Made by a program: the position numbers and the translations under genes. Below, piece after piece: positions 131 through 26,651 of a stretch of 32,000 nt of DNA (position 1 is its first letter; each line of letters starts with the position of its first letter). The stretch comes from Gemmata obscuriglobus (GTDB lineage: Bacteria > Planctomycetota > Planctomycetia > Gemmatales > Gemmataceae). Under the pieces are notes generated by a model. The model made no database searches. It was not told where the DNA came from and saw nothing but the letters and a program-made list of their open reading frames with translations. The stretch lies in the NCBI RefSeq assembly GCF_008065095.1, contig NZ_CP042911.1:2970001-3002000 (forward strand), given 5' to 3'.

Positions 131-3100
131 CTAACAATCGCGTTTTCGATTAATCACCGTTGGTGACAGATCAATCCGGAATTTCGTGGCCACCTCTGCA
201 ATTTCGTCCGGTGGCAGTTGGGTCAGAAGGTAGCTGACTAGGTCTTCCTGACGGCTCTGACCGAACACCATTCGGTAAACAGCGAGCGTCCTGCGAAGCG
301 CTTCCATTCTTTCCGCATCGCGACTGAGAGGGAATGTGATCAAGTGTCGCTCAACCGACGCACCGCCCTCAAGTGGGTATACCCAATAAGGCACGAGGTC
401 CGACGTTTCAGGTTTTCGCTCCGCTACGCCCGCAGCGAACAGCGCGTCCCACGGGTCGTCAGAAGTCGTGAGGGCGGCCAAGCCAAATTTCGCTGCCAGA
501 TTTTTTCGCACCGCATGCCCCTTGTAGCGGTGGACGCGGCCCTCGCGCTGCTCAAGGTCGACGGGGTTCGCCGGCAGATTCCAGTGGACCACCGCATGAC
601 AGTAGGGGTGGAAATCGAGCCCTTCTTGTCCGACCGAGGTGGTAGCGAGAACGAACGGCCAGAAGGGGGAATTGAACGATGCGCGCACTTGTTCCGCCCG
701 GTTGGCGCCACGCTCGCTGTCCTCCGACCGCTCTTCGCCGAACCGCACGGCGAACCGCCCGCGCATCGTGCGATTTTCGACTCTCACTGTTCCGCGTTTG
801 CTTGCGCGGACGTCATCGACTCCCAGAGCCGAGGTGCGAAGGGACAACGCCGCGTGCATGCCCGCGGCCACCTCCTCGCTGATCCGTGCACTACTCCCAC
901 CGGTTTTCCCCTGAAGGTCTCTCTGCACGTGTGCGTATTCATCTAATACAGCCTGGATACACCCATCGAGCGAGTATTCAATTGCCCGCCGCCAGTAGGG
1001 CTCTGCGCCGTTCCGGCCGCGGATCATCGCGGTTACTTCGGGGAGATTGAACAAGCGGAGGAGCGCGTGCCCCACCCACCCGGCCTCGTGGCGCAGTAAT
1101 GGTCTCGACGGATCAGGCAACTCCCCCGACACGCGGGCTAATGCCCGAAGGGCCGACACCGCCGGACCCGCGAGCGCGAGCTCGGCGAGAACGTCGACGA
1201 GGTCCGACGGCTGCGGTCCGAGCACCACTTTGCCGGCGACGAGTTCACGCGCGTGAGCGACGTGGGCGTGCCAGAGTGACTCTTCAACGTCACCGTCGGT
1301 GGCGCCGTCGTTTTGTTCACCCGCCCACGAGTCAGCGAGTTCGTTGTCCCTAAACCACGCCCGGGTCGAATCTTCGTGTCGTACGAGGTCAAGCAGGATC
1401 GGTGCTGCCCAGTACCACGCTTCGTCCTCCGCGCCCGTGTCACTCGACGTTGCGAGCGCAGAAACGAGCGGTCGTAAATGCTCGGCAACACGTTTCCTCA
1501 CCGCTTCCAGGGTGAGAGGGTGCTCGAACGGTTCGGCGGAGAGAGCGAGTGCGAGCGGGTCGCCGACCGCCGCGAGTGTCAGACTTGGGTAGACCATTCC
1601 CAACACGGGAAGACCCGTGAGTCGCTCATCGGAGCGGGCAAAGCGCAGGAGCGGCCGTCGGCGTTTTCGTTCGTCGGGGGTGTTCTTCGGGTCCGTCTCG
1701 AACGAGCGCATCATCTCCCGCTCGGCCTCGTAGCTCAGAAGGCACGTGATCGTTTTGGGCACCACGTGCCACGCAGAGAACACGAGCCGCTTTGTGAAGC
1801 GGCCGGCACGCTCGCCGGCGAACGCCCCGGCCGGTTGATAGTAGGGGAGTGACGGCGGCACCCAGAGCAACTCCCACGCGCCGGCACCGACCGTTTCGGC
1901 GGCGAGCTTTCTGAGTCCCGCGTGACCGGGATCGACGGCCTGGTACGCGGACACGTCCTTCCATGAGAGCAGAAGATCCGGAGTCTCCGACAGAATGCCT
2001 GCGAGCGTTTCCTCCCTCGCCGTCACTTCTAGGGCGTCTCGAAAGGCGCGCTTGACCTCATAGTTCTCCATGAAGTTCAAAAGAAACGGCGCCGATTTCC
2101 AAAACTCAAGCACTTCGCCCGCGTCGAGGGCATCGGCGACGCGGCGAAGCTGGGGGTATGTCGCCACGTCCCGCGCCGTGAGTGTGAGGCCCGTGCGCGG
2201 CATCTCCTTGAGCATGCCGTCCCGGTTGTGGGTGACGGCGAGCCGCTCCGTGCGGACGATGGTTTTCCGTAAGCGCCGTTCCAGATCGTGCTTCAGGGCG
2301 AGGAGCCGGTCAAGACTGCCGCGGCCGATGCGGAACAGTTCGCGGCGGAAGTCATCGAGTACGCCTTCGAACCCACGGGCCTCCGACGGCTCAAGGAACG
2401 TGAGCGTGCGCAAGAAGTCCGCGTAGTGGTTGTCGTCGTGCGCCTCTGCGGCGAGCGTGTACATCTTGTACGGAGTTGCTGACAAGAGCAGTACCCGCAC
2501 GTCGTCGTATTCGAACAGGTCGCTCGCAAGCTGCCCGAGTTCGCTGTTATCGGTGAGCAGATCCCGGAACCGCTGGAACTCGTCCAAAACAATGAGGTCG
2601 GGTTTAAGTGCTCTGAGACAGCTTGCGGCGAGCAGAGTGCGCACCTCGCCGATCCAGCGCGCCCGCTTCTCCCGTGCGCCGGCGGGAGCCTCGTCTTTCA
2701 CGTGTCGAAACAGATCGCACAGTTCGTTGAACCGCTCGCGGAGCGTCAGATGGTCTTTCGCCCGTTCGGCGGCCATGTGGTGGTCGAGGCTCTTGAGAAA
2801 TTGCTCGGCGAGCCCCGCGTCAATCACCGGCCCGCCGCTCCCGTCGGAGCGGTCGAGGAGGGAGATGAAGTTCTCGGGCGTGCAGTTGCCCTGAAACACT
2901 TTTCGGGGCGCGACGCCGCTGAACTCCCACGGCTTCTGGAGGAGTCGGTAAAGGAGCACCCGCTCCTGAACGTGGCCGAGGCTCGACTTCAGATCGAAGG
3001 AGGTGCCGGGCGTCAGCGAGATGAAATTGAGCGGATTCCTTTGGAGGTCTTGAATGCGCGTGGGCAGCAACGTGATCCGCTCGGTCCGAACGAACTCTTG

Positions 3101-3391
3101 GGCCTCTGTGACGTTCAACCGGTTTACGTTCTGGCGCGCGATGTCGGCGTTCGAGCAAATGTAGACGACGTCGATGCGGTCTTTTTTGTCCCAAAGGTGG
3201 TCGATGGCTTTGGCAATGACGCCGCGGGCGACGAGAGTTTTCCCGAGCCCGACTTCGTCGGCGACGAGGACGCGCGGGGTGGCGGCAGGACCATAGAGTC
3301 GCGAAAACACATACTCCACCGTATCACGTTGAAAGTCCTTGAGCCCGCGCAGAATGGCTGCGGTGTCGGGCCGCGCGACTCCTGTTCTCAT
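131..3391 (-). CDS. SNF2/SF2-family helicase ATPase (1086 aa from the coupled ATG; the ORF stays open to an ATG at 3430)
   Basis: Motif I ADEVGLGKT, motif II LIVLDEFQ, C-terminal helicase motifs TTSVGQEGLDFH and QREGRVHRYKG. The ATG at 3391 overlaps the PLD gene stop as ATGA and has AGAGGA 7 nt upstream. Confidence 0.9.
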   Translation of the reverse strand: MRTGVARPDTAAILRGLKDFQRDTVEYVFSRLYGPAATPRVLVADEVGLGKTLVARGVIAKAIDHLWDKKDRIDVVYICSNADIARQNVNRLNVTEAQEFVRTERITLLPTRIQDLQRNPLNFISLTPGTSFDLKSSLGHVQERVLLYRLLQKPWEFSGVAPRKVFQGNCTPENFISLLDRSDGSGGPVIDAGLAEQFLKSLDHHMAAERAKDHLTLRERFNELCDLFRHVKDEAPAGAREKRARWIGEVRTLLAASCLRALKPDLIVLDEFQRFRDLLTDNSELGQLASDLFEYDDVRVLLLSATPYKMYTLAAEAHDDNHYADFLRTLTFLEPSEARGFEGVLDDFRRELFRIGRGSLDRLLALKHDLERRLRKTIVRTERLAVTHNRDGMLKEMPRTGLTLTARDVATYPQLRRVADALDAGEVLEFWKSAPFLLNFMENYEVKRAFRDALEVTAREETLAGILSETPDLLLSWKDVSAYQAVDPGHAGLRKLAAETVGAGAWELLWVPPSLPYYQPAGAFAGERAGRFTKRLVFSAWHVVPKTITCLLSYEAEREMMRSFETDPKNTPDERKRRRPLLRFARSDERLTGLPVLGMVYPSLTLAAVGDPLALALSAEPFEHPLTLEAVRKRVAEHLRPLVSALATSSDTGAEDEAWYWAAPILLDLVRHEDSTRAWFRDNELADSWAGEQNDGATDGDVEESLWHAHVAHARELVAGKVVLGPQPSDLVDVLAELALAGPAVSALRALARVSGELPDPSRPLLRHEAGWVGHALLRLFNLPEVTAMIRGRNGAEPYWRRAIEYSLDGCIQAVLDEYAHVQRDLQGKTGGSSARISEEVAAGMHAALSLRTSALGVDDVRASKRGTVRVENRTMRGRFAVRFGEERSEDSERGANRAEQVRASFNSPFWPFVLATTSVGQEGLDFHPYCHAVVHWNLPANPVDLEQREGRVHRYKGHAVRKNLAAKFGLAALTTSDDPWDALFAAGVAERKPETSDLVPYWVYPLEGGASVERHLITFPLSRDAERMEALRRTLAVYRMVFGQSRQEDLVSYLLTQLPPDEIAEVATKFRIDLSPTVINRKRDC

Positions 3392-5241
3392 GGGTGCATC
3401 CTCTGTCTGGCCTGCCACACCGGAAGCCATATCTCGTCGAACCCCGCGGGCAAAAGGCCTTCGCCCGCGGCCCGCAGGTCTTCAACGAGCTTGGCCACTT
3501 GATCGAGTTTGGTCGGGCTCTGGTCGAGCGCCTTCATCAGCGACTCGAACAGGGGCACACCGCCTGCGCCCCACTGAAAGGGCCCGCTGCCAAGTTCGAA
3601 TTCGTCGGCCGCCGATTCGAGCGGGCCGCCCTCGGCGCCGAACTCCGACAGGAGAAACATGAGAAACCGCAGCACCTGCTCCGGCGTACTGAGGAGCCCC
3701 TTGAGAATACGTTCTTTGCGATCGGACGGCGCGCCCGATAGTGGGACGTTGAGCACGAACCGCAGGCAGGCCGTCTTGCCGGACGATTTGGCGATGACGC
3801 GAAACGCAAAGAACGAAGTGAGCGCGGCGAACGAGAGCGCGTGATACGTCGCGAGTGTGGTGCCGCCGGACGTCGCAACGGCTGTGTGCTCAGGGAGCGT
3901 GATCGGCCACGCGCGAACTTCGGCACCGGAGACGAACGGCGAAAGCGTGCCGCTCTCGGTGCGCAACGCTACATCGAACAGTTCGGCCCCCGCTGCCGAC
4001 GAAACATCCGCGACGAGAGCGAGGCCGCTGATTTCCCGTCGCACCGTTTCGGCTAATTCGTCCAGGCTCTTTTGCTCGGCATCGACGACAGTGGCGTCCA
4101 TACCGGGAGTGAAGGGTTGAAGGAGGTCCGCGAACGAGAGGCCGCCGTCGGTCCGTTTCAGGAATATGTCGATCCCGACGCGGCTCTTCCTGCCCACGAG
4201 CTGCACCAGGAACTCGACGTTGCCGCCAAACGCGGCGCTCGTGGCATTCGCCGATCCGGTAAACACGCTCGCGTTCCACCCGTGCTCGGCGATGTAGAGC
4301 TTTGCGTGAAGCCCGCTCGTCGGGGCGCCGGACGGCGCCTCCTCTTCTTCCTCGAACGCCTCCGCTCGGGCTTCCTCAACCTCGGCCGACGGGTTCAACG
4401 CGTGAACCGCAGTGAAGCCGTCGAGCGCGCCGGCCCCTAGCTCTTGGAGCGAGTCGATTCGAGACACGAGGATCGCGTCGTCGGTGATCTCGGTCACGCG
4501 CTCTAACAGAGGGGGCGACAAAAACGGCGACACGACGAGCACGCGGCTGTACCAGTTGCCGAACGGCCACGACGTCCGGCCTTCGATGCCGAGTGGCCAG
4601 AAGCTGATCTCATCGAAACCGTCGGGCGGCACGAAAGGCACGCGCCTCAGCTCCGCCGCACAGAGTTGAACGCGCTCGGCGGTCTCCGCCGGCAGCGGGA
4701 GCTTGGACATCCCCGGAAGCGCTGCGAAGAAGTCGCCGAGCGGGTGGTTCGCCGCGATCGCGTTCTTGCGGCCCCCCAGTTCGCCTTCGAGAACGAGCGC
4801 CGTGTCCCACGAGCGGTCGAAGGTCAAGTTGCGACTGAGGCACAGGACGCGGTAGCACACCGCGCCGTCGGCAGCCACAAAACGTAGCGCCCACACCTTC
4901 GGGTGAAAACTCGTCACCGGGCCGCGGGCCGCCACCTCGAACACCGAGTTTTCGAGATAGCCGAAGAGGACGCGGTGCTGCTTGGGCACGAGCGTCTGGC
5001 CCGCCTGGCAGAACACCGCGATGCGGTCCGAGTAGCGGCGCAGCGCTTCAAGCGTCGCCAGCGGGTCCGCGCTCGGCCGCCCCTCCGCGTCTTGCCAGTC
5101 GAACATGGTGAACGCGAGCGGCGCGGTCAGCAACGCGACCAGGTCGAGGGAGTAAGTGGTGCCCACGGCGAAGTCGAGCGAGTACCCTTCGGGCGGGCGG
5201 AGCGCGTCGAGCAGCAGGCGGCGGTCGTGTGGTCCGAGCAT
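3388..5241 (-). CDS. Phospholipase D-family (HKD) nuclease-like protein, 617 aa
   Basis: Canonical HKD motif LHAKLYIAEHGWNASVFTGSANATSAAF (HxK...GSxN) plus an N-terminal degenerate copy FHPKVWALRF. The start lies 3 nt after the upstream gene stop, and its own stop overlaps the helicase start. Confidence 0.88.
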   Translation of the reverse strand: MLGPHDRRLLLDALRPPEGYSLDFAVGTTYSLDLVALLTAPLAFTMFDWQDAEGRPSADPLATLEALRRYSDRIAVFCQAGQTLVPKQHRVLFGYLENSVFEVAARGPVTSFHPKVWALRFVAADGAVCYRVLCLSRNLTFDRSWDTALVLEGELGGRKNAIAANHPLGDFFAALPGMSKLPLPAETAERVQLCAAELRRVPFVPPDGFDEISFWPLGIEGRTSWPFGNWYSRVLVVSPFLSPPLLERVTEITDDAILVSRIDSLQELGAGALDGFTAVHALNPSAEVEEARAEAFEEEEEAPSGAPTSGLHAKLYIAEHGWNASVFTGSANATSAAFGGNVEFLVQLVGRKSRVGIDIFLKRTDGGLSFADLLQPFTPGMDATVVDAEQKSLDELAETVRREISGLALVADVSSAAGAELFDVALRTESGTLSPFVSGAEVRAWPITLPEHTAVATSGGTTLATYHALSFAALTSFFAFRVIAKSSGKTACLRFVLNVPLSGAPSDRKERILKGLLSTPEQVLRFLMFLLSEFGAEGGPLESAADEFELGSGPFQWGAGGVPLFESLMKALDQSPTKLDQVAKLVEDLRAAGEGLLPAGFDEIWLPVWQARQRMHP

Positions 5242-5244
5242 CGC

Positions 5245-6432
5245 TCACTCCTCCTCGCAGAGACCCTGGCGAATGTCGCGTAGGATCACCCGCGTCGGCC
5301 CCCACCGAAAATCGAGCGCCCCGGTGCCGGCGGCCCCGTTCCAGAGCTCGAGCGCCCGCTGATTGTCGAGGCGCGAGAGCCCGCGCTTGAGCGCCCGCTC
5401 ACGGGTCGCCACGAGCTGCCGGGCGGCACCGCCTGTAGATTTTTTGCCGTCCCCGTCGAGCGCGAGGCCGAGCCACCCGTCGATGAACATTCGCGTCTGC
5501 GGGCTGACCCGCGCTCCCGCACCGACGACGAGTTGCCAGAATTGCGTCCGGTCCCAATCTCGAAGGGCCGCGCCACGTGCCTCAAGCTGTTCGTGCCACT
5601 CGTTGAGGAGCTTGGCGTACTTTTCCACCAAGTCGTCGGCCGGTTTCTTCTCGGCGAGCATTAGGTTGTAGAGGTAGGCCGCCCCGTGGATGGCCTCAGA
5701 GAAGTTACGGGCGTGCGCGAGAAGCTCCTGGAGCGGGGGAGGGAACTCTTTGGAGAGCGGGTGCGCCCACGGAAAATCGACTTCCGCCTCCGCCCCGTCG
5801 GAATCGACCAAGAAGGCGAGAAGCGATTTGGGCACGCGGGCGAGAACGCGGTCGCGCAGGTACTGGGCCTCGCCGGGAGTCAGCCGAAACGTGATGTTCT
5901 CGGGAAACCCCTCGGGCGCGCCGGGAAGCCCCGCGTGCCAGTTCGGCGCGGCCGGCAGCTCGGCGTCGGCGCGGTCCGCGCGGCGGTAGTAGCCATCGAG
6001 CGAGCGGTGGTACTGGTCGAGAGAACCAGGGAAGAGGCAAACGCCCCACACGCGCAGGCCCTGCCAGTACACGCTGCTCGGCAGCCGCTGCAGAGCTTCC
6101 TTTGCCTGCTTGCCGAGGAGTCCCGACGTGTCGTTGGACTTAAGGAGCGCGAAGATGGTCGCGACCTCGCCCTTTCGTGCGCGGTCGCGCGCCTTGTCGC
6201 TCGGCACCCGCCGGTGTTCGAGGTCGCGGTACACCCACGGCACGAAGAAAAAATACCGAGCGCGGGTCTGGATCGTGCTCGTCCCAGGAAAGAACGCGTC
6301 GGCAAAGGCGTCACGCACCGTTCCGATGCCGAGTTCGTCGCGCGTCTCCTGTTCGCGAAACAGGTCGATCACGTCGAGCATCTGGCGTCGATGCTGTTCG
6401 GAGTAATCGAGCCAAGTGAACGTTGATTGCAT
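5245..6432 (-). CDS. Conserved hypothetical protein, first gene of the PLD/SNF2 operon (395 aa from ATG 6432; GTG alternative at 6453)
   Basis: Long ORF with protein-like composition (FTWLDYSEQHRRQMLDVIDLFREQETRDELGIG..., TRARYFFFVPWVY). It is tightly packed with the PLD gene. I recall similar proteins being catalogued as a DUF (DUF6361?) next to helicase+PLD pairs, unverified. Confidence 0.75.
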   Translation of the reverse strand: MQSTFTWLDYSEQHRRQMLDVIDLFREQETRDELGIGTVRDAFADAFFPGTSTIQTRARYFFFVPWVYRDLEHRRVPSDKARDRARKGEVATIFALLKSNDTSGLLGKQAKEALQRLPSSVYWQGLRVWGVCLFPGSLDQYHRSLDGYYRRADRADAELPAAPNWHAGLPGAPEGFPENITFRLTPGEAQYLRDRVLARVPKSLLAFLVDSDGAEAEVDFPWAHPLSKEFPPPLQELLAHARNFSEAIHGAAYLYNLMLAEKKPADDLVEKYAKLLNEWHEQLEARGAALRDWDRTQFWQLVVGAGARVSPQTRMFIDGWLGLALDGDGKKSTGGAARQLVATRERALKRGLSRLDNQRALELWNGAAGTGALDFRWGPTRVILRDIRQGLCEEE

Positions 6433-6545
6433 AGATACTGTGATCCAGTACACGTCGAACGGCGACGAGGGGTATTACAACAAAAGATACCTACACGCTT
6501 AAGCTTGCGGAATCGACTGAAGGGGAAACCGAACGAAAGTAACGG

Positions 6546-6583
6546 GCGTGACGCCGATCGCAAATTACGCCCCGGCGTCACGC
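6546..6583 (-). terminator. Hairpin terminator candidate downstream of the DUF6527-like gene
   Basis: 11-bp perfect stem gcgtgacgccg/cggcgtcacgc with a 16-nt loop, 9 nt after the stop at 6592. On the minus strand it is followed by CCGTTACTTTCGTTC (moderately U-rich). Confidence 0.45.
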
Positions 6584-6591
6584 TGCGTCGC

Positions 6592-7065
6592 TCAAGTTCC
6601 GAAAATCCATTTCCAGAAGCGTGACCACCGTCCGCGCTTTTTCTCCTCGGGGGCAACAGTCGGCACTTTCTGAGGTTGTGGCACCGGCGGCAGTTGCGGT
6701 GCCGGCTGGACATTCGGCGGTGTCCCGTAGTGTTGCGCTCGTGCGTCCCGGTCACGCTGGCGTCCGGCCTCGATCTGCGTATCGCTCCATGGCGGTGCGG
6801 TGAGCACGCGCCCGTGGTCGATGACGTAGTGCGACCGGCACCGCAGGCTCCAGTTGCCGATCGAGGGCCACAAGGAGACGGTTTCTCCGTCGAACGTCAT
6901 GCGCCACTGCGCAGGGCTTAAAGGCGTCACCACCTCTTCGCCGCAACCGCAGCAGCAGATGTGGGAGGCCGTGCAGAACTCGAGTGCGATGTAGAGCACA
7001 CCGGGCTCGAGTTTTTCGGGCACGTACTGCACGAAGCGGTGTTCGAGTCTCTGGCAGCGCATCAT
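6592..7065 (-). CDS. Cys-rich DUF6527-like protein with a P/Q-rich linker and a Trp-rich basic C-terminal tail
   Basis: Motif EFCTASHICCCGCGEEV plus LRCRSH (putative Zn site). The tail is ...PQLPPVPQPQKVPTVAPEEKKRGRWSRFWKWIFGT. The ATG at 7065 overlaps the E1 stop as ATGA. Family name is from memory. Confidence 0.8.
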   Translation of the reverse strand: MMRCQRLEHRFVQYVPEKLEPGVLYIALEFCTASHICCCGCGEEVVTPLSPAQWRMTFDGETVSLWPSIGNWSLRCRSHYVIDHGRVLTAPPWSDTQIEAGRQRDRDARAQHYGTPPNVQPAPQLPPVPQPQKVPTVAPEEKKRGRWSRFWKWIFGT

Positions 7066-8243
7066 GGGAGGTCACCGTTGATGAGCAGATTGCTTTCGGT
7101 CGTGTAGGTCGAGTGGTGCTCCCGTTCCGCGTCGCGGTAGAACCCGCGGATCTTTTTCCACTTCATCACCGCGAGCGCTGCGTTCATCGCGTTCAGCTCG
7201 ACCACCTGGATGTTCGAGGCGTAGACGTCGTCGGCGCCCCCGCCGACGAACGAAATTCGACCGCCGTGAACGTGGTCGCGTTTTTCGGGCGTGCTCGCCG
7301 TCACCCGCAAGATGCCGCCGAGCATCCCGTCCGCGTCCAGGTCGAGGCCCATCCCCACGTCAACGAACGCGGCCCCGATCTTTTCGAGGTGGCGCACCAC
7401 GCCCCGCTTGTCCTCGCCCGCGTCCATGCTCAAGAACGCGAAGGTGGTACCGTCGAGCAGGTGCACGTTGTCGGCCCGCAGGAACGTCCGGTGCGCGACG
7501 ACCCGGCGGTGCATGCGCGAGTAGATCCCACGAAAATACTCGACCTTCGGGAACACCTCGCGCAGTTCCTCGATCGCCGGCGCGCCAGGGGCGCGAAAGG
7601 CGTTGTGTTGGAGAAACTCGTCGCCGTCGAACAGGCGAATCTCTCTCACCGGTGTCTTAGCGACCAGGTCGAGGACGTACGACCCGGTCCCACCGAGCCC
7701 GACGAGCGACACGGTTTCGTGAGAAAGTTTCTCACTCAGCGCGCCGATGCCGACACGGGCCGATGCGGTGTCCAGATAGTTGAAAACGCCGTCGCGTTCG
7801 TCCTCCGGCGTGCGGAACACGCGCGGGTTTGCGCCCTCTTCGAGCACCGCCGCCGGCCCCGAGATGACCCCCGCGTAGGTCGTCATCTTCTCGTGGTAAT
7901 CGGTGTACCCCGAGTCCCTGGGTTTGCTCGAGAAGTGGTACTTGGCGGTCACCCCGTTCCCGAGGTCATAGTTCCCGCTGCTGTGACCGATGCCCTTGAG
8001 TTCGGTGCCGTCGGCGTTGCAGGGAAACTCCCCGTCAAACCACACCTGGTGCGAGTCCGGCTTTTGGGTGACGTCCCCGGCCAGAGTGAGGCCCGAGACG
8101 AGGGTGCCCCGGCGGACGCACTTTTTGCTGTCCACGTAGGGCACTTCGCGCATCACGAGCAGCGCGCCCCGGATCTCGACGAAGTAGCCTTCGTCTCGAA
8201 GGCTCTTCAAGTCCGGGTTACGAGCGAACAGTTCGCGTGACAT
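7062..8243 (-). CDS. E1-like ThiF/MoeB-family adenylyltransferase with an extra ~170-aa N-terminal domain (393 aa)
   Basis: Rossmann motif LVGLGGTGSYVLDLV, then RLFDGDEFLQHNAFR and LSMDAGEDKR (ThiF/E1 adenylation signatures). AAGGGAG lies 8 nt upstream of ATG 8243; the ORF is open to 8282. Confidence 0.85.
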   Translation of the reverse strand: MSRELFARNPDLKSLRDEGYFVEIRGALLVMREVPYVDSKKCVRRGTLVSGLTLAGDVTQKPDSHQVWFDGEFPCNADGTELKGIGHSSGNYDLGNGVTAKYHFSSKPRDSGYTDYHEKMTTYAGVISGPAAVLEEGANPRVFRTPEDERDGVFNYLDTASARVGIGALSEKLSHETVSLVGLGGTGSYVLDLVAKTPVREIRLFDGDEFLQHNAFRAPGAPAIEELREVFPKVEYFRGIYSRMHRRVVAHRTFLRADNVHLLDGTTFAFLSMDAGEDKRGVVRHLEKIGAAFVDVGMGLDLDADGMLGGILRVTASTPEKRDHVHGGRISFVGGGADDVYASNIQVVELNAMNAALAVMKWKKIRGFYRDAEREHHSTYTTESNLLINGDLP

Positions 8244-8940
8244 TGAACCGACTCCCTTTTTTGATTTGAACCGATCCGCCACGGCCGAGTTCCCCGACGG
8301 GCGGCGTCGAAGCGGCGTGGGTGTAGTTCATGGAGAATTCGACGTTCGGGTCGTGGTCGCCCGGGAACGCGAGCTGAACGATCTGCTCGTAGGTCACCGT
8401 GTTCCCGGTAACGGTCTTGGGCCGGCCGTTGACGAAGATCTCGAACGTGGGCACCGGGCGCGGTCCGGTCACGAAGCGCTCGACACCGGCGCCCGCGAGA
8501 TCGACGATGTCACCGGGCTCGATCAGCCGGTCTTGGCCCCCGCGGGCGTCGAGGAACACGGCCTGGCCCGGCCCCACGTTCGCGAGCGTGTACAGAACCG
8601 AGCCGAGCAGGTTCTGCACGCCCCAACTGATCGCGCGCCCGTCGAGCGTGAACCGGTAGACGCGGTCGGTCTTGAACGCGACGAACCGTTCGACGCCCTT
8701 GCCGCGAAGGTCGAAGAGCTCGTCGAGCCGCACGTCTTCGAAGTCGCCGCTCGGCAGGATGGCGAAGAGGCTGTAGTCGTCCACCGGCGCGTACCCCGCG
8801 GACGCGAGGAGTTGGCGTCCGAGCGGCACCGGGTCGGTCGTGGTGTGCGGGCGAAAGTTGAGCGTCTCGTCGCTCACCGCGAACCGGTAAGCGCTCGCCG
8901 CCTTGACCTTCTCGCCGCCGGATTCAGTTGCGTCGTTCAT
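8218..8940 (-). CDS. Multiubiquitin-type protein with three tandem beta-grasp-like repeats (240 aa)
   Basis: Internal repeats are visible: YRFAVSDETL...LRGKGVERFVAF / YRFTLDGRAI...LAGAGVERFVTG / FEIFVNGRPKTVTGNTVTYEQIVQLAF...GSVQIKKGSRFNVTRT. This matches my memory of Pfam Multiubiq. GGAG lies 8 nt upstream of ATG 8940. The 90 codons further upstream in the ORF overlap the terminator and the neighbouring gene end. Confidence 0.8.
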   Translation of the reverse strand: MNDATESGGEKVKAASAYRFAVSDETLNFRPHTTTDPVPLGRQLLASAGYAPVDDYSLFAILPSGDFEDVRLDELFDLRGKGVERFVAFKTDRVYRFTLDGRAISWGVQNLLGSVLYTLANVGPGQAVFLDARGGQDRLIEPGDIVDLAGAGVERFVTGPRPVPTFEIFVNGRPKTVTGNTVTYEQIVQLAFPGDHDPNVEFSMNYTHAASTPPVGELGRGGSVQIKKGSRFNVTRTVRS

Positions 8941-9082
8941 GTGCGTAACTCCGTTGTTAAGTCCGGGTACCATCGCCCGCGGTGTCGTTGCAGCCCCTCG
9001 TCGGGCCTCTACTTCTCTTGAACCGCGGGCGTCTCGAATCCGGCAGTCGGATTTGAAAAAAGATGTGACGGGCTCGATCGGG

Positions 9083-9114
9083 CCAAAAACAAAAGCGGGG
9101 GCATTTGCCCCCGC
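9083..9114 (-). terminator. Rho-independent terminator of the helicase-nuclease operon
   Basis: On the minus strand gcgggggc-aaat-gcccccgc (8-bp GC stem) is followed directly by TTTTGTTTTTGG, 35 nt after the stop at 9149. Confidence 0.75.
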
Positions 9115-9148
9115 CTGTGTGAAAGAACGGTTGTGTGCCCGAATGCAA

Positions 9149-12100
9149 TCAGAGTGGTGCGCCGTGCGAAGGGCATACGAAGTAGTAAGCGCAGTTCGGG
9201 CAGTCGTCACTTTCTTTGGGGTCGAACGCGCCGGTCGCCACCGCGCGCACCACGTCCTCGATCACCGTGAGCGACTTGGAGAGTTTCTTGGTCTCGACCT
9301 TGGACCGCTGGCGCTCGGTTGTGAGCAGCGACACGTGCTCGAAAACGATCTCCTGCCCGGGGTGAGCGTTCCCCACGGCTACCTGCCACAGGGTGTAGCG
9401 AAGTTTTTCCGTCTCTTTCTTGGCGAGCCGACTCGTTTTCAGTCTGCGGATGACGACCCCCGCGCTCGTCGCTTCGATGTGATCGGCGCGGCAGTTGACC
9501 ACGGCACCGGTCTCCGGGAGCGTGACGGTTCGGTCGACCGGAAGCGCTTGCCCGTCCATCACCGCCAACGCGTTCGCGATCATTTTGTCCGCGATGCCGC
9601 GGTAGAACGGCTCGAACGCGTGCCCCTGCGGGCCGTGCTCGCTCCAGTCGAGTTCGAACTGCGCGCGGATTCCCGCGCTGCGCTCGGCCGCTTGCGGGAC
9701 GCTCCGCAGCCAGGCGAGGCTCGCGTGCAGCGCCGACTGGAACTGCAAGTACGGACCTTCTTCGTCGCGGGCGTTGAGCGCCAGCGCGTGGTCGTAGTAG
9801 TAGCGGCGCGGGCACTCGTCGTACGTTTCGATCGCGTAGTACGACCACGCGCCCGTCACCGCGGCGGCCGCGAGCCGCGGGCGGCCCTTTGCCTGGTGGC
9901 CGAGGTTCTTCCACCCCGCCGCGGCGTCCACCGCCTTCGGGAGGTGAGCGGTAACATGTTCGAGAAACGACGACGGCCCCCGCTTAACCGCTCCGTTCGT
10001 CTCCGAGCGCGAGAGGTGCAGCACGTCCTTCGCGCGGGACATGCCGACGAAGAACAAGCTCTCCTCTTCAGCCGTTGCCGTCAAGAGGTCGTCTGCCGCG
10101 ATCATTCCGGCCGGCGGCGGGCACGGGTCGGACCGGTTCCCGAGCGGGAAAATCGTCTTCGCCAGCGACACGAGGTGGACGACGGGAAATTCGAGGCCCT
10201 TGCTCGCGTGCACCGTCATCAGGCGCACTGCGTCGATGTCGCCGGCCGCTGCGGGGAGCTGCCGGAGTTGCTTCTCCTCGTCGAGAATCGTGAGCCGGCG
10301 CACGTGATTGAGGAACGCGTGCTTGGGGTCCTCTTTCTCCGGCGGCTTGAACGCGAACGCGAACTGAAGCAGTTGGTACACGGCGAGCCGGCGCTGCTGG
10401 TCTTGAACCGTGTTACCCGCGAGGAGCAGGCGCACGTGCTCTCCAGAGCCGAACAGGTACTCGGTGAGAAACCGGTGCGGGGAAACCGTCCACGACCAGT
10501 GCCTCGTGTCGAAGACGAGGAGCTTGATTCCGGCGCGACCGACGTCCGTGAGGTCGCAGATTTCGTCCGCCCGCCGAAGCGCCGAGAGCATGGAGATTGC
10601 CTGCTCGCGGCGCCACTCGACTACCTTGATGATGTCCGCGGGAGGGACCGCGTACTGCGGCATTTGCGCGACCCGCAAAAGTCCCACCCCGCGCTTCTCG
10701 GAAACGACGGACAGGAGCGAGAGCAGGTCGCGCACCTCGGGCCGCTCGAAGAAGTCTCCGAAGTAGAGGCACGGCACGCCGGACCGTTCGAGGTGCCCGG
10801 CCAGTCGCGCGAGGGTTGTGTGCGAGCGGGCGAGGACGACCTGGTGGCGAAAGGGCACCCCGTCACTCTGGCGCTTCTTGATCGCCTGCGCAATTCCCTC
10901 GGCTTCCGCCTCTCTTGACACCGCCACGTCGTACAGAACGTTCCCGTTGGTTTCGCCCCGGTGGGCCGTCAACCCGGAATTGGGGGCGAGGGGCGCGGCA
11001 GTCATTTTCTGCCCGAACGCCTCGAATGCGCGCACGATCTTGCCGCCGGAGCGGTAGTTGACGGTGAGGTCGGTGACGGCGGCGCCGGGAAAATCTTGCT
11101 CGAACCGCGACATGTTGAGCGGCGACGCGCCGCGGAAGCGGTAGATCGCCTGGCGCACGTCGCCGACGACCCAAGGACCAGCTTTCGGGGTAACAATCTC
11201 CTTGAGAAAATGGGCACTGGCCCGGTTCATGTCCTGGTACTCGTCAACCAGGATGTGGCGGTACTGATCGCGAACCGCGTCCCGAACCTCCGGGTGTGCG
11301 CGGAGCAGTTCGACGGGGCGCGCCACCAGGTCGCCGAAATCGACGCGCCACTGCGAGCGGAGTTCGCGCTCGTAGACGCTGTACACGTTTGCGACCTCGA
11401 GTGCTTTTTCGGCCCTGGTGATCGCGTCGGGATCGCTCGCGGATGCGAGCATGGCGTGGGCCAACTCGCCGTACCGCTCGGGGGTGACGAGGTCGTCTTT
11501 GGCGCGCCCGATGGCGTTCAGAATGTCTTTGAGCGCCCGCGCGGGCTCGTACAAGTCGAGGTAGTGGTTCAGCGGCAGTTGGGGTAGCAGTTGTTCGAGG
11601 AACATCAGCGAGTCGGTGCGGTCGAGCAGCTTCGGCGGCCCCTCCATGCCGAGCACATGGCCGTGTTTGCGCAGAAGCTCCAGCCCGAACGCGTGGAACG
11701 TGCCGGACCACACCGCCGTCGCCTTGTCACCCACCGCCGCGCGAATGCGGGCGGCCAGATCCTTCGCCGAGAGATTGGAGTAGGTGAGTGCGAGGATCGA
11801 ACCCGCGGGAACGTTTCGGGCTCTGAGCAGGTGGACGACTCGGCCCACGAGCGTCCGCGTTTTTCCCGTCCCGGGGCCGGCCCGCACTTGGCGCGGGCCG
11901 TCGCCCGCCTCGATCGCTGTGCGCTGGCTCGCGTCCGGCTCGTCGGCGTCGCTCGCCCGCGTCTCTTCGGCGCCGCCGTGCTCTTCAGGTAGCAGCGCCA
12001 CGTCGGTCATCTGGTGCAGCACCAGGTCGACGGGGACGCCGAGTTCCGTCGCGAGCGCGCCCGCGTCGAATTGTCCGTGTTCGCACCGACGGCGGAGCTT

Positions 12101-12532
12101 CTCGCGGGGAACGAGAAACTCGCGGGCGAACACGTTCGCCTGGGCCTCGGACCGCTCTTTGGGGCTGTACGAGTCGGCGTCGCCGACGACCGAAGGGGCG
12201 GGCTCCGCCGCGGTCAGCATGTCGAGATCGTTGCAGTCACAGCGCGCGACTACCGCCCCGAGCCAGTGGTGCCCGTACTCGTGGGCGACGTAGAATCGCG
12301 CCAGCGGCTCGGCGTGTTCGCGCGAGTAGTAAATCTTCTTCTTCTCGCTGTGGTAACACGCTTCGCCGCCGTCGAGCAGCGCGTCGCCCTTGGGTCGCGA
12401 GTGCCGGGTTACGCCGGTCGCTCGTTCGGCAGCGTCGAGCAAGGCCGCGGCGGGAACCAATTCGTCGGTGGTTCCGAACAGGTCGGCATGCCGTGCGGCG
12501 GCGAGGCGCCGAACTTCATTCCACGCGCTCAT
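9149..12532 (-). CDS. Fusion protein: ImmA/IrrE-type (M78) metalloprotease + UvrD/PcrA-like SF1 helicase + Cas4/AddB-like PD-(D/E)XK domain with a Fe-S cysteine signature (1127 aa)
   Basis: N-terminus: HEYGHHW (HExxH) and EAQANVFAREFLVP. Helicase: AGPGTGKT, ILVDEYQDMN, VGDVRQAIYRFRGA, VNYRSG, TVHASKGLEFPVV, ESLFFVGMSRAKD. C-terminus: ECPRRYYYD plus CPNCAYYFVC (C-x2-C-x5-C). The ATG overlaps the upstream stop as ATGA. Confidence 0.9.
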   Translation of the reverse strand: MSAWNEVRRLAAARHADLFGTTDELVPAAALLDAAERATGVTRHSRPKGDALLDGGEACYHSEKKKIYYSREHAEPLARFYVAHEYGHHWLGAVVARCDCNDLDMLTAAEPAPSVVGDADSYSPKERSEAQANVFAREFLVPREKLRRRCEHGQFDAGALATELGVPVDLVLHQMTDVALLPEEHGGAEETRASDADEPDASQRTAIEAGDGPRQVRAGPGTGKTRTLVGRVVHLLRARNVPAGSILALTYSNLSAKDLAARIRAAVGDKATAVWSGTFHAFGLELLRKHGHVLGMEGPPKLLDRTDSLMFLEQLLPQLPLNHYLDLYEPARALKDILNAIGRAKDDLVTPERYGELAHAMLASASDPDAITRAEKALEVANVYSVYERELRSQWRVDFGDLVARPVELLRAHPEVRDAVRDQYRHILVDEYQDMNRASAHFLKEIVTPKAGPWVVGDVRQAIYRFRGASPLNMSRFEQDFPGAAVTDLTVNYRSGGKIVRAFEAFGQKMTAAPLAPNSGLTAHRGETNGNVLYDVAVSREAEAEGIAQAIKKRQSDGVPFRHQVVLARSHTTLARLAGHLERSGVPCLYFGDFFERPEVRDLLSLLSVVSEKRGVGLLRVAQMPQYAVPPADIIKVVEWRREQAISMLSALRRADEICDLTDVGRAGIKLLVFDTRHWSWTVSPHRFLTEYLFGSGEHVRLLLAGNTVQDQQRRLAVYQLLQFAFAFKPPEKEDPKHAFLNHVRRLTILDEEKQLRQLPAAAGDIDAVRLMTVHASKGLEFPVVHLVSLAKTIFPLGNRSDPCPPPAGMIAADDLLTATAEEESLFFVGMSRAKDVLHLSRSETNGAVKRGPSSFLEHVTAHLPKAVDAAAGWKNLGHQAKGRPRLAAAAVTGAWSYYAIETYDECPRRYYYDHALALNARDEEGPYLQFQSALHASLAWLRSVPQAAERSAGIRAQFELDWSEHGPQGHAFEPFYRGIADKMIANALAVMDGQALPVDRTVTLPETGAVVNCRADHIEATSAGVVIRRLKTSRLAKKETEKLRYTLWQVAVGNAHPGQEIVFEHVSLLTTERQRSKVETKKLSKSLTVIEDVVRAVATGAFDPKESDDCPNCAYYFVCPSHGAPL

Positions 12533-13158
12533 CGATTCCCTCCCGTTATTTGCTCTTGGTTCACGATCTCAACCCACCGGGCCTTCAAGTCCTCTGGCAG
12601 GTCGGAGGAATCGACGGCGGCGAGAAAGTCTTCGGTCGGAACGGTCGGCTTGTTTTTGGCCTTATTCGCGACCGCGCCGATGGGCTCGCCGGTGAACATG
12701 GCCCGAACCGCGTCGATGGTGAAGTCGAGCGCTGCTGCTGCCAACTCATGCAGTTTCTGCGGAATACCGGAGGGGATTCGCCGTAAATCGAGCTTGTCGA
12801 CGAGCGATTCGTCGAGGTCGCACTTCTTCGCGAACTCTCGGTCGGTGAGGCCGCGCGATTTGATCGCTTGGCTCAGTCTGCTCGGGGCCGCCGCCGGTAG
12901 AGTGGCAGCGGCCGGTTGGCCCGCGAGAAAGTCGAGCGCCTTACTCAGCATGCGATCGCCGGCTCGAGCCTCGTCCACAGTCACTTGTTCTCTGGACGTT
13001 TCTTGCAGAGCCCACGTCGCGAAGAAGCGACTGAGCGCTTCGCGGTGTTTCGGATACTGGGCGGTCCAGCGCACGAGGGCCTCGTGAGTTGGCTTCTCTT
13101 CCTCAAGCATAATTTCGTCGACAACGTCTTCGAATGTGTGGGGGGAGTGGGTGCTCAT
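12529..13158 (-). CDS. XRE-like HTH protein (ImmR-like partner candidate), 209 aa from the coupled ATG
   Basis: HTH-like segment LSQAIKSRGLTDREFAKKCDLDESLVDKL. The ATG at 13158 overlaps the sigma gene stop as ATGA, and its own stop overlaps the protease-helicase ATG as ATGA. Confidence 0.65.
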   Translation of the reverse strand: MSTHSPHTFEDVVDEIMLEEEKPTHEALVRWTAQYPKHREALSRFFATWALQETSREQVTVDEARAGDRMLSKALDFLAGQPAAATLPAAAPSRLSQAIKSRGLTDREFAKKCDLDESLVDKLDLRRIPSGIPQKLHELAAAALDFTIDAVRAMFTGEPIGAVANKAKNKPTVPTEDFLAAVDSSDLPEDLKARWVEIVNQEQITGGNR

Positions 13159-13925
13159 AAATTTTCTCCTATCCTCGCTCGCACCTGGCTCATCGCAGTG
13201 CGTAGCCAGGTGTTGATTTGGCGCTCCTTGACATCGAAGTGTCGGCACAGCGTGGCAACGTTCGGATCACTCGGGTCGATCGGCCAGTTGTACCCGTATC
13301 GAAGGACGAACGCCTCGCGATGTCGCGGGTCAGTGATGGCGTCGAGGCCCTCGAACAAGATCATCAAATCGTCGGGCGGGAGTGCTGGATCGGCGACGAC
13401 TACCCCCACGTCTTCTTCTGTTACTGTGTCTGCGATTCGAACTTCAGAGTACTCGTTGGCGCGCGCGAAGTGCGCCTCGACCGCGTTGAGCGCGAGGCCA
13501 CGGGCGACTTTGCGAAACGACACTTCGAGGAATTCGCCCTTACGGGTCGGTGCAGATTCAAAGACCAAGCTGACGATTCGACCCTGAATGCTGTCGATGA
13601 GGTCGTCCCGCGCCTGGTTCCCGACACCACGCGAATTGTCACTGACAATTCGAGCAACGCGCCGGCCCAGTTCCCGTACCAATGCGCTAAACTCCGGCAT
13701 AGTTCGGGAATTTTCCCGCCACTTCCGGAGAAGGTGCACAATGGTTTCACTTCGAAAATGAGGAATGTCCCACACGGGCGGGTCCACCCCGTGCGCTTGG
13801 CGAATCTGCTCACGCACCTCCGACTTGCGCACGTAACGCCTACCGTCCCGCGTTCCGAGCGTCAGCGCGGCGGGACAATTTGGATCGTGATTCGCCGTCG
13901 TGGCGTGGGTCGTTGATTCGCTCAT
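13155..13925 (-). CDS. Sigma-70/ECF-like transcription factor (256 aa)
   Basis: Region-4-like segment LFEGLDAITDPRHREAFVLRYGYNWPI...ATLCRHFDVKERQINTWLRTAMSQVRARI. Region-2-like segment ALVRELGRRVARIV...DDLIDSIQGRIVSLVF. First gene of the three-gene operon. Confidence 0.55.
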   Translation of the reverse strand: MSESTTHATTANHDPNCPAALTLGTRDGRRYVRKSEVREQIRQAHGVDPPVWDIPHFRSETIVHLLRKWRENSRTMPEFSALVRELGRRVARIVSDNSRGVGNQARDDLIDSIQGRIVSLVFESAPTRKGEFLEVSFRKVARGLALNAVEAHFARANEYSEVRIADTVTEEDVGVVVADPALPPDDLMILFEGLDAITDPRHREAFVLRYGYNWPIDPSDPNVATLCRHFDVKERQINTWLRTAMSQVRARIGENL

Positions 13926-14027
13926 ACCCCTCTCGAACCGGGTTGTCTGCGAAACCGGCAGTCAATTCGCAAAGATTTTTTTCACCCCCGTGCCGGCTGG
14001 TCCGGCGAGCCGAGCCACGATAACGCT

Positions 14028-14035
14028 CAAATTTA
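14028..14035. repeat. Left target-site duplication of the IS1595-family element (CAAATTTA)
   Basis: Identical 8-mer at 14867-14874, immediately outside the terminal inverted repeats. Confidence 0.9.
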
Positions 14036-14866
14036 GGTGATTAGCAAAATTCTAGGGCAGCAAGTAGTCTGTTCCTATGACCCTCGAAGAGTATGAGCGG
14101 CACTTGGTCGGGCAACTCTGTTGGCGGTGCCACCAGGCCACACACCAGAATTCGGCCCGGCAGCGGCAGTGCCCCAGTTGCCGGGCCAAGTGGAGCTATC
14201 ACCGGCGCAAGACGGAGTGGGAGCTGCTCCGGGCGTTCGCCTTGAGTACCACGGCCCACCACGCGGCTCGGGTGGTCCGGTGCAGCTACCCAACGGCCTA
14301 CGCCGCGTACACGCGGTTCCGCCTCACCCTCCAGGCCATGACCGACGAGGAGAAGCGCCCGCTGCTCGGGGCACTGGAACGGGACGAGTCGTACTTCGGG
14401 GGCAAGCGGAAAGGCAAGCGGGGCCGCGGGGCGGGCGGGAAAGTGCCCGTGTTCGGCATCCTGGAGCGGGCCGGGCGGGTGTACACGGTGGCCGTCCCGA
14501 ACTGTAGCAAGGAGACCCTGATGGCCAAGATCCAGGCCGCAACGGTCAAGGGGAGCGTGTTCTACACGGACGAGTTCGCCAGCTACAACGACGTCCAGAG
14601 CCACGGCAAGCACGTCCCGATCAACCACCAGGAAACATTCGGGGTGGGGGCCGCGCACATCAACGGGATCGAGGGGTTCTGGAGCTACGCGAAGCGGCTG
14701 TACCGGCACGTCCACGGGGTCGAGCCGGGGAACTTCCCGCTGTACCTGGCTGAGTATGAATTCCGGTACAACCACCGCGGCGAGCACCTGATGACCCTCC
14801 TGTATAACCGCCTAATCCGGGCCGCCGCCCCAACCCAAACCCAGCCCTAGAATTTTGCTAATCACC
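14036..14866 (+). mobile_element. IS1595-family insertion sequence (831 bp), apparently intact
   Basis: Perfect 23-bp terminal inverted repeats GGTGATTAGCAAAATTCTAGGGC (14036-14058; reverse complement at 14844-14866), 8-bp direct repeats, and a single transposase ORF. Confidence 0.92.
14077..14850 (+). CDS. IS1595-family (ISXO2-like) DDE transposase with an N-terminal Zn-ribbon
   Basis: CWRCHQ...CPSCRA Zn-ribbon. DESYFGGKRKGKRGRGAGGKVPVFGILER, FYTDEFASYN, INGIEGFWSYAKRL and EYEFRYNHR are typical of this family. Confidence 0.9.
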   Translation: MTLEEYERHLVGQLCWRCHQATHQNSARQRQCPSCRAKWSYHRRKTEWELLRAFALSTTAHHAARVVRCSYPTAYAAYTRFRLTLQAMTDEEKRPLLGALERDESYFGGKRKGKRGRGAGGKVPVFGILERAGRVYTVAVPNCSKETLMAKIQAATVKGSVFYTDEFASYNDVQSHGKHVPINHQETFGVGAAHINGIEGFWSYAKRLYRHVHGVEPGNFPLYLAEYEFRYNHRGEHLMTLLYNRLIRAAAPTQTQP

Positions 14867-24669: not shown

Positions 24670-25072
24670 AAAGGGGGTAGCTCGACTGTCTGATGAGCCC
24701 GTCTTTGGGGCACCTTCGAGCCCGAGGGAGCCGGGAGCGGTGCTCACGTCTGCCCGCCACGTTCGCTTTCGAGGCCTCCTTTAAAGAGGCGATTCGTGGG
24801 TAGGTCTTGAAAGGGAGGGTGCGGGAACCGCAGGTTCCTGCAAAGGGTGAGGCTTCCCTCCGCGTTTATCTTGGGCGTTTCGCTGCCACCATTTGAGCGA
24901 TGCGCCGAATGCGACAAGTGAACCTGCTGCGCCTCAAAAGGCTCTATCCATTTCCGCCACTGGATTCGCCCAATGCCAGCAACCCACCAACTCGACAAGT
25001 AAGCTATTTGCCCCCGACCGGCCCGAACTGGTGAAGTCACCGAAGCTAAAGCCCTCTTGGAGGACGGTACGG

Positions 25073-26627: not shown

Positions 26628-26651
26628 GGCACTCCTTTGCCACCGACAGCG

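Follow-up and report, generated by a model that had tools for sequence, protein, structure and literature searches.

The question raised by this locus is what a compact operon for ubiquitin-like protein conjugation is, and what might turn it on, when helicase genes stand on both sides of it. The operon lies on the minus strand at positions 6592-8940 of a 32,000-nucleotide (nt) stretch of Gemmata obscuriglobus DNA, which is called the window here and whose numbering is used for all coordinates. The analysis points to a Type II Bub operon, with the genes bubA, bubBD and bubE, as the downstream half of a six-gene cluster that is itself conserved. The upstream half encodes a protein resembling extracytoplasmic function (ECF) sigma factors (up1), a helix-turn-helix (HTH) protein (up2) and a helicase with an M78 peptidase domain and a nuclease-like domain. 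The best overall explanation, with a probability of roughly 0.8, is that a Type II Bub conjugation operon is linked to a conserved upstream trio through shared promoter-like boxes and is probably under its control. The three genes alone add nothing new; what is new is their link to a helicase-nuclease with a peptidase, to a sigma-like factor and to a box, seen in 53 of 81 loci.

Identity of the three-gene operon

Bub operons, formerly named 6E or DUF6527 operons, were defined by Ye, Gong, Chambers and Corbett (bioRxiv 10.1101/2024.11.21.623953). In that definition, a Type II operon (formerly 6E.2) is composed of BubA carrying between one and three beta-grasp domains, the E2-E1 fusion BubBD and the DUF6527 protein BubE, typically without a JAB peptidase. 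The prototype is BubA-BubBD-BubE of E. coli ZDHYS365 (10.1101/2024.11.21.623953; Gong et al., 10.1101/2024.11.21.623966), whose defining residues are S106 of the E2, accompanied by an invariant Lys and His, and R219 and the crossover-loop Y342 of the E1. The E. coli BubA and BubBD form conjugates in vitro. In homologues, the ubiquitin-like protein (Ubl) is adenylated, bound as an oxyester to a Tyr of the E1 and then to a Ser of the E2, and conjugated to targets; BubE cleaves the conjugates, and the triple Ubl (Ubl3) forms Ca2+-dependent filaments. Table S1 of Ye et al. includes an operon of Gemmata massiliana (10.1101/2024.11.21.623953).

The window operon presents the same gene set and order. 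Its reading frames overlap by 26 nt (8218-8243) and then by an ATGA (7062-7065), as had been read in a preliminary description made from the letters alone, and the annotation of the homologue in E. coli CP61_Sichuan gives identical overlaps of 26 and 4 nt. The start of bubA is the ATG at 8940, with a GGAG 8 nt 5' of it, and bubBD is 100% identical to GobsT_25350. The Pfam searches that the preliminary description had proposed support its assignments (Multi_ubiq, ThiF and DUF6527), and its guess of a Bub-type operon was right, the architecture and residues being those of Type II Bub. The minimal three-gene form is a named type that has been tested biochemically.

BubA matches Multi_ubiq over three stretches (E = 1.9e-57), which correspond to the three tandem beta-grasp repeats already proposed. 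Its matches among PDB sequences are solved Ubl3 proteins: 8u38, which is the best, 9d5b, 9d59 and 9cd2. The last of these, the Type II BubA of E. coli ZDHYS365, aligns over residues 35-239 of the window protein, and residues D92 and E154 align with D73 and E136 of its Ca2+ site 1. As had also been noticed, BubA does not end in Gly-Gly. Its C-terminal sequence is ...FNVTRTVRS, and a GRGG motif (residues 219-222) lies 18 residues from the end, within the third beta-grasp according to the alignment with 9cd2. The GRGG was rejected as a processing site because it is internal to this domain and the true C-terminus is conserved, the last residue being Ser in 78 of 78 unique homologues from loci L001-L081 (consensus FNVT.T..S; last codon in the window at 8218-8220). 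Ordinary ubiquitin-like modifiers end in Gly or Gly-Gly, whereas Type II BubA ends in Ser. The Bub preprint makes no mention of this invariant Ser and treats only the C-terminal Gly of Type I.

Regarding BubBD, the ThiF/E1 adenylation domain had been recognized correctly (Pfam ThiF from residue 170, 28.2 bits with a cut-off of 28.1), but the N-terminal domain is not unexplained, as had been stated. It matches Pfam DUF6791 (residues 10-159, 2.3e-57), carries the invariant Ser, His and Lys, and is the predicted E2 half of the E2-E1 fusion. The whole protein also matches NCBIfam PRK06153.1-1 with 669 bits (cut-off 601) and has more than 7,700 homologues. Among 145 representatives of clusters at 50% identity, H65 and R217 are kept in all 145, Y341 in 143, S105 (in the motif HFSSKP) in 141 and K107 in at least 90%, and there is no conserved Cys. 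Single-sequence searches of the PDB with BubBD and with BubE gave nothing. Citrobacter BubCD (9ea5), in which the adenylation Arg is aligned, was reached only with a BubBD profile, as its best PDB match (E = 4.7e-10).

BubE matches Pfam DUF6527 with 2.6e-23. The Cys-rich motif CTASHICCCGCG, the Pro/Gln linker and the Trp-rich tail RGRWSRFWKWIFGT described previously are present in the translation, but membrane interaction, suggested by the tail, is not the whole account of this protein. It is BubE, a predicted Ser-His deconjugating peptidase that stands in for JAB, with a C4 zinc site. Residues C37/C39/C41/C76 and S68/H79 are kept in at least 95% of 79 homologues, and they are spaced like the residues of the zinc site (C57/C59/C61/C99) and of the dyad (S92/H102) in the Citrobacter protein. 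The preliminary description had also reported that there is neither an E2 nor a JAB gene. No separate open reading frame for either was found at the locus, nor any JAB match in Pfam, but an E2 is present; separate genes are missing because the E2 is fused in BubBD and the DUF6527 protein is the putative peptidase.

Altogether, the window operon shows the gene set and order, the E2 Ser/Lys/His, the E1 Arg/Tyr without a conserved Cys, the BubE C4 site with Ser-His and the hydrophobic tail RGRWSRFWKWIFGT, and the acidic residues of the Ubl3 Ca2+ site. Judged by sequence, it is a Type II Bub operon and an ordinary member of that type. A housekeeping sulfur-carrier or cofactor pathway of the ThiF/MoeB type, in which no protein would be conjugated, could claim a weak ThiF/MoeB/TcdA similarity in the nucleotide-binding region, but its probability is close to nil and it was rejected. 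The score with ThiF TIGR02356 is 17.5 bits, far under the family cut-off of 275; a conserved Cys and a rhodanese domain are lacking, and BubA ends in Ser instead of Gly-Gly; and a homologue makes protein conjugates in vitro. In addition, the operon is patchily distributed in mobile-element and plasmid settings (3 of 5426 E. coli genomes and 121 plasmids), among them plasmids of Acinetobacter, Klebsiella and Rhizobium. The survey of neighbourhoods that had been suggested as a check gave homologues in mobile or plasmid contexts.

Conserved upstream genes and a shared box

The linkage to the upstream genes was examined in 80 loci from a scan of species-representative genomes plus the E. coli locus, 81 in total. 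In 53 of them, bubA is immediately preceded by a full-length homologue of the helicase, which ends about 80-150 nt before it. These loci come from Planctomycetes, Verrucomicrobia, Acidobacteria and Alpha-, Beta- and Gammaproteobacteria. A full-length helicase copy is also found on 76 plasmids. In nearly all the helicase loci, a gene of about 260-285 aa followed by one of about 190 aa is found immediately upstream of the helicase, mostly with a 4-nt overlap between these two genes. In the window, up2 overlaps both neighbouring genes by 4 nt, and ATGA is read at the up1/up2 junction. In E. coli CP61_Sichuan the operon likewise follows two small genes and one for a UvrD-domain protein of 1136 aa. 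Hence, comparative genomics shows that the operon belongs to a conserved cluster of six genes, of which it is the downstream half; the upstream trio is likely to be translationally coupled. Across the loci, identity to the window proteins is about 34% for the helicase and 57-75% for BubBD.

A helicase or UvrD protein as a linked gene is absent from the Bub preprint, its supplement, the CapK/CapS paper and Iyer et al. 2006, and no literature was found that links a helicase, an M78 peptidase or a sigma factor with Bub, Bil or 6E operons (one candidate, the ApsAB paper, was unrelated). Mesorhizobium metallidurans, for which Table S1 of Ye et al. gives no regulator (10.1101/2024.11.21.623953), is locus L048, which carries the three upstream genes.

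The helicase matches Pfam M78 (8e-12), UvrD (7e-62), UvrD_C (4e-32) and PDDEXK_1 (6e-15). In 52 sequences, H84-E85-x-x-H88, E129, the Walker A motif (218-225), DEYQD (430-434) and the four cysteines C907/C1111/C1114/C1120 of an AddB/Cas4-like cluster are invariant, and in the C-terminal domain (window 9149-9600) D1017 and E1065 are kept in at least 90%. Given the invariance of Walker A, Walker B and the 4-Cys cluster, the protein probably has an active motor. The protein matches GajB-like and AddA/RecB-like models strongly, the GajB model with 223 bits. Gabija was nevertheless rejected, because the GajB score reflects the generic UvrD core and there is no GajA-like gene adjoining. The match of the M78 domain to the PDB sequence of CapP is weak (E = 0.15).

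The folds of up1 and up2 were studied by comparing AlphaFold2 (AF2) models with the PDB using Foldseek, where TMt is the TM-score normalised to the target. The up1 model has a mean predicted confidence (pLDDT) of 81.6, and its top matches are almost all sigma factors: sigmaE 1or7 over both domains (E = 3.9e-3, probability 1.00), sigmaE region 2 in 4lup (TMt 0.60) and region 4 in 3hug (TMt 0.70). Sigma70_r4_2 is found in 17 of 24 orthologues (best 1.1e-7) and Sigma70_ECF in the L084 orthologue. NCBI annotates the protein as a sigma-70 family RNA polymerase sigma factor, and sigma-24 is another name given by annotation pipelines. Its sequence scores under the ECF family cut-offs. The up2 model (pLDDT 73.7) contains an XRE-type HTH that matches SinR, C-proteins of restriction-modification systems, the N-terminal domain of CapH (7t5u, TMt 0.80) and DdrO (6rnz, TMt 0.71). 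No Pfam family matches up2, and no significant match among PDB sequences came from profile searches with up1 or up2. From these models, up1 appears sigma-like and up2 appears to carry an HTH of the CapH/DdrO type. CapH and DdrO are substrates of the M78 peptidases CapP and IrrE, respectively.

Furthermore, a promoter-like bipartite box is found between the helicase and bubA. Its majority form is TT[AT]CCGG-N16-CGATT (TTACCGG-N16-CGATT in most loci), and its two halves are the only invariant columns in an alignment of 32 helicase-bubA spacers. The 53 helicase loci were searched with the pattern TT[AT]CCG[GA]-N15-17-CGAT[TG], for which stray matches amount to about 14 in 2.1 Mb with both strands counted. 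At the helicase stop, upstream of bubA, 47 of the 53 loci carry the box; 37 have it within the 3' part of up1, some 200 nt ahead of up2, and seven have it upstream of up1. When a locus has two copies, both share the same variant in 33 of 35 cases (both TTTCCGG, both TTACCGA or both CGATG), and in L024 and L027 the copy at the helicase stop and the copy upstream of up1 both have a 17-nt spacer. The internal copy (L002-L060) is overprinted on codons for YRxRLDAAI, and L017 and L027, which are without this box, show a relaxed peptide motif.

The majority box is absent from the window. Instead, a k-mer comparison of its two intergenic regions revealed the variant CTGCCGG-N16-GTTCRAGAG, present in exactly two copies, one before each unit, and a degenerate third match occupies the site homologous to the internal box (Table 1). 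The closest relative of the window helicase (48% identity), on a Sinorhizobium plasmid (L082), is accompanied by TTGCCGG-N16-GCAGAGAG. A scan of 6300-14200 for sigma-70 consensus promoters gave no site. The box is described here as promoter-like, a candidate for the cognate bipartite promoter of up1, including that of its own unit.

Table 1. Positions of the genes, boxes and signals of the cluster and of other genes in the 32,000-nt window.
Feature	Position	Strand	Description
Hairpin past the bubE stop codon	6546-6583	-	Weak terminator candidate, 12-bp stem
bubE (gene 3)	6592-7065	-	157 aa, DUF6527, C4 zinc site, Pro/Gln linker, Trp-rich basic tail
bubBD (gene 2)	7062-8243	-	393 aa; DUF6791 E2-like about residues 1-159, ThiF-type adenylation domain from about 165
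bubA (gene 1)	8218-8940	-	240 aa, Ubl3 with three beta-grasp domains, C-terminal Ser240
Box upstream of bubA	9015-9046	-	CTGCCGG-N16-GTTCAAGAG, exact pattern match
Intrinsic terminator after the helicase gene	9093-9116	-	10-bp stem with 8 G-C pairs, then T-run TTTTGTTTTT
M78-UvrD-nuclease helicase	9149-12532	-	1127 aa, Peptidase_M78 (IrrE/CapP-type)-UvrD-PD-(D/E)XK/4-Cys
up2	12529-13158	-	209 aa, helical, XRE-type HTH, GobsT_25380
up1	13155-13925	-	256 aa, ECF-sigma-like protein
Degenerate third box in the 3' part of up1	13348-13379	-	CCGCCCG-N16-GTTCGAGGG, 3-mismatch match, homologous internal site
Second box, just upstream of up1	13930-13961	-	CTGCCGG-N16-GTTCGAGAG, exact pattern match
ZacABC	131-6453	-	PADLOC ZacC 1146, ZacB 588 and ZacA 462 bits (Pfam DUF6361)
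IS1595-family transposase	14077-14850	+	
TrwC relaxase-helicase	15242-17932	+	
DUF932 protein	19081-20034	-	
2OG-Fe(II) oxygenase superfamily protein	24893-25666	+	Pfam 9e-17
AbiEii nucleotidyltransferase toxin and AbiEi antitoxin	25758-27266	-	Pfam 4e-28 and 7e-11
Piwi-domain protein	29834-31390	+	518 aa, short-Argonaute-like, Pfam 7.6e-11

The leader of bubA presents a feature of its own. From the CGATT box to the start codon, the leaders of L001-L060 hold a nested inverted repeat. Its outer arms bring the bases just past the -10-like box into pairing with those of the Shine-Dalgarno region, and this pairing is kept although the sequence is variable. When each leader was folded separately the nested hairpin was seen, with z < -2 in 23 of 32, and RNAalifold on a MAFFT alignment gave a consensus of three pairs only. 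This repeat could act as a DNA operator or, in the RNA, as a hairpin masking the ribosome-binding site. The window leader (8941-9014) is no more stably folded than shuffled sequence (z = 0.28).

As for termination, the terminator after the helicase gene folds at -23.5 kcal/mol (z = -6.2), and the operon does begin just below it, as the preliminary description had it. The terminator candidate proposed for the operon itself is weaker: the 12-bp hairpin exists, and the 86-nt stretch folds at -33.4 kcal/mol with z = -2.2, but only a poor T-tract follows, and the hairpin went uncalled in the consensus scan.

These signals bear on the possibility that the operon is self-contained and that the helicase-nuclease system next to it in a defence island is an unrelated neighbour. 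The strong terminator, the three genes of the published Type II definition, the 28 of 81 loci without a full-length helicase homologue (some of them on contigs that end early) and a downstream neighbour, ZacABC, that is truly unrelated would all agree with it. It is, however, largely refuted and very improbable in view of the fixed order and spacing in 53 loci from at least five phyla, despite a helicase with only 34% identity, of the box that co-varies between the copies in a locus, and of the duplication of the window box before both units. The operon had been placed between two helicase-nuclease systems; helicase genes do lie on both sides and the downstream ZacABC is separate, but the upstream one is syntenic with bubA and shares its box.

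A putative control module and its rivals

Other loci give some information about the upstream position. In three Type II Bub loci without the upstream trio (L059, L064 and L079), a divergent pair of HTH_3 and Peptidase_M78 genes, similar to CapH+CapP, is found at the same place. Two others with a Ubl3 and without the trio, L043 (7416-9087) and L056 (7439-9163), encode a protein of about 370 aa together with a MarR-like winged-HTH (wHTH) protein of about 185 aa; this pair may be the published CapK+CapS. Moreover, the same sigma-like, HTH and M78-UvrD genes and the box precede Bil-like operons in L083 (4414-12239) and L084 (4384-12607), on plasmids of Rhizobium and Roseovarius. These operons encode DUF7665, Prok-JAB, a ThiF E1 of about 450-459 aa and small open reading frames. 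In the Sinorhizobium locus L082 (4569-12829), only a ThiF E1 gene and the variant box were confirmed; the window helicase is nearer to this copy than to the Bub-linked copies (about 34%). Swapping of genes in this slot and linkage to Bil-like operons would be less expected of a chance neighbour than of a portable module for control or sensing, and suggest a single upstream control module common to Bub and Bil-like operons.

The conjugation steps proposed for the window are those of Ye et al., with the residues checked in the window proteins. The E1 half of BubBD would adenylate the carboxylate of BubA Ser240, with R217 as the adenylation arginine. BubA would then move to the crossover-loop Tyr341 as an oxyester, next to Ser105 of the fused E2, aided by His65 and Lys107, and from there to a lysine on the target. 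BubE, with its predicted zinc site (C37/C39/C41/C76), S68/H79 dyad and hydrophobic Trp-rich tail, would cleave the conjugates, and the triple beta-grasp BubA keeps the Ca2+-site residues that drive filaments in solved homologues. On the side of control, the sigma-like up1 would drive both transcription units from the boxes. The helicase-nuclease part could meet damaged or foreign DNA, after which the M78 domain may cleave up2, by analogy with CapP/CapH, IrrE/DdrO and ImmA/ImmR, and this cleavage would switch Bub on. No description of such a switch was found in the literature. That these three genes are a portable DNA-sensing switch for Bub and Bil-like operons, and that BubA is conjugated through its invariant C-terminal Ser, is put forward tentatively, as a proposal whose chances are somewhat under even.

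The helicase could also have a different role. It may be an effector that degrades or translocates DNA, or a target of conjugation, so that Bub marks, activates or restrains the helicase or its substrates. Such a composite effector would be in line with the invariant Walker A, Walker B and 4-Cys motifs, with the strong GajB-like and AddA/RecB-like matches, and with partners that are always Ubl-conjugation operons, Bub or Bil-like, in the inspected loci; the helicase also diverges much faster than BubBD, which is what a component that meets invaders would be expected to do. On the other hand, regulated proteolysis is known to work through M78+HTH pairs, the pure regulators CapH+CapP fill the same slot in other Bub loci, the PD-(D/E)XK Lys is not conserved, and a terminator and a promoter-like box separate the helicase from bubA. 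This role is considered rather unlikely, and it is compatible with the sigma and promoter findings, as it concerns the function of the helicase only.

Several points weigh against the link between a Bub conjugation operon and an upstream control module. The strong terminator between the helicase and bubA means that the two halves of the cluster could act independently. The number of independent co-variation events of the box is lower than the counts imply because many loci are related, and part of the conservation of the internal box could be driven by the protein, as it overlaps the conserved YRxRLDAAI codons. The window box departs from the majority consensus, and the pattern used to search for it was derived from its own two copies. 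The fold matches of up2 are weak (E from 0.05 to 0.3, 0.19 for CapH) and cover only the HTH domain of about 60 residues. In the nuclease domain of the helicase, the absence of the conserved PD-(D/E)XK Lys makes nuclease activity uncertain. Sigma activity and promoter use, like conjugation and cleavage by the peptidase, are steps that we infer. Finally, none of the Bub operons tested by Ye et al. gave phage protection and no biological role was assigned to them (10.1101/2024.11.21.623953), in agreement with the preliminary description, which knew of no demonstrated role; and the published 2026 version of this work by Ye et al., which was outside the literature search, may already describe the helicase link.

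The surroundings of the cluster are those of a mobile defence island. An IS1595-family transposase, a TrwC relaxase-helicase, AbiE genes and a Piwi-domain protein are encoded in the window, together with a DUF932 protein and a 2OG-Fe(II) oxygenase superfamily protein (Table 1), and the defence-island setting recognized previously is thus borne out. ZacABC, a candidate defence system directly downstream of bubE, is syntenic with Bub in no other locus examined. No tRNA gene marking an integration site was found in the window.

Bub is widespread and uses a cysteine-free ubiquitination chemistry, yet its authors report neither a role nor a phage phenotype. The link described here offers several handles: a possible inducer (DNA damage or foreign DNA), a possible way of switching the operon on through the sigma-like factor or the loss of the HTH protein, and candidate targets. 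If the proposed switch is real, Bub operons tested without the module may never have been on, and this could explain the missing phenotype.

Comparison with known systems

The window operon resembles the Type II Bub prototype in gene order, E2-E1 fusion, lack of JAB, catalytic residues and Ubl3 Ca2+ site 1, as well as in its location in a mobile element or defence island. The regulators published for Bub are frequent and not obligatory. Genes of the WYL (CapW), stand-alone M78+HTH_3 (CapH+CapP) and STAS/GHKL (CapK+CapS) kinds do not adjoin the window operon, which instead has the sigma-like, HTH and M78-UvrD-nuclease genes; none of these three is named in the Bub literature that was searched.

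Type I Bub (6E.1, Citrobacter BubAB-BubCD-BubE) has in common with it the E1 adenylation domain, the Ubl3, BubE and the Tyr/Ser oxyester chemistry. However, Type I has Ubl-E2 and JAB-E1 fusions, whereas the window has a free Ubl ending in Ser, an E2-E1 fusion and no JAB. Membership of Type I was rejected, since the Ubl is free-standing and the N-terminus of the E1 protein is DUF6791 and not JAB.

Type II CBASS Cap2/Cap3 and 6A-MBL are similar in the E2-E1 fusion architecture and the antiphage-island setting. Cap2, unlike BubBD, uses catalytic cysteines and conjugates a CD-NTase, not a Ubl, and CBASS has the JAB peptidase Cap3. PADLOC (2023 models), which had been suggested as a check, did not recognize the system: it gave weak Cap2-like matches to BubBD and nothing for BubA or BubE. 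Its E1-E2 matches to BubBD reach 10-24 bits (maximum 24.5) and mostly cover a stretch of about 50 residues near the nucleotide-binding loop. Neither a JAB nor a CD-NTase was found in the window. CBASS was rejected due to these weak and local matches, the lack of a conserved Cys, and the lack of JAB and CD-NTase. Bil systems of Types I and II also combine a Ubl, sometimes a Ubl3 (PDB 8u38), with E1/E2 machinery, but they have a separate E2, a JAB peptidase, an E1 with a catalytic cysteine and no DUF6527, unlike the window operon, whose membership of Bil was likewise rejected.

Concerning the upstream half, the likeness to ECF sigma/anti-sigma modules lies in the modelled sigma2+sigma4 fold, the bipartite box with a 16-nt spacer, the co-transcribed partner and, in some loci, the box copy upstream of its own gene. 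By contrast, up1 has about 70 extra N-terminal residues and scores under the ECF cut-offs, its partner has an HTH and no known anti-sigma domain, and its binding to RNA polymerase is only predicted. The pairs CapP/CapH, IrrE/DdrO and ImmA/ImmR share with the window an M78 HExxH domain beside a gene for an XRE-HTH protein (in the window a predicted one), upstream of a defence or stress operon. In the window, unlike in those pairs, the peptidase is fused to UvrD and to a nuclease-like 4-Cys domain and its cleavage activity is putative, the HTH protein has about 200 aa with extra helices, and a sigma-like protein and promoter-like boxes are added to the arrangement.

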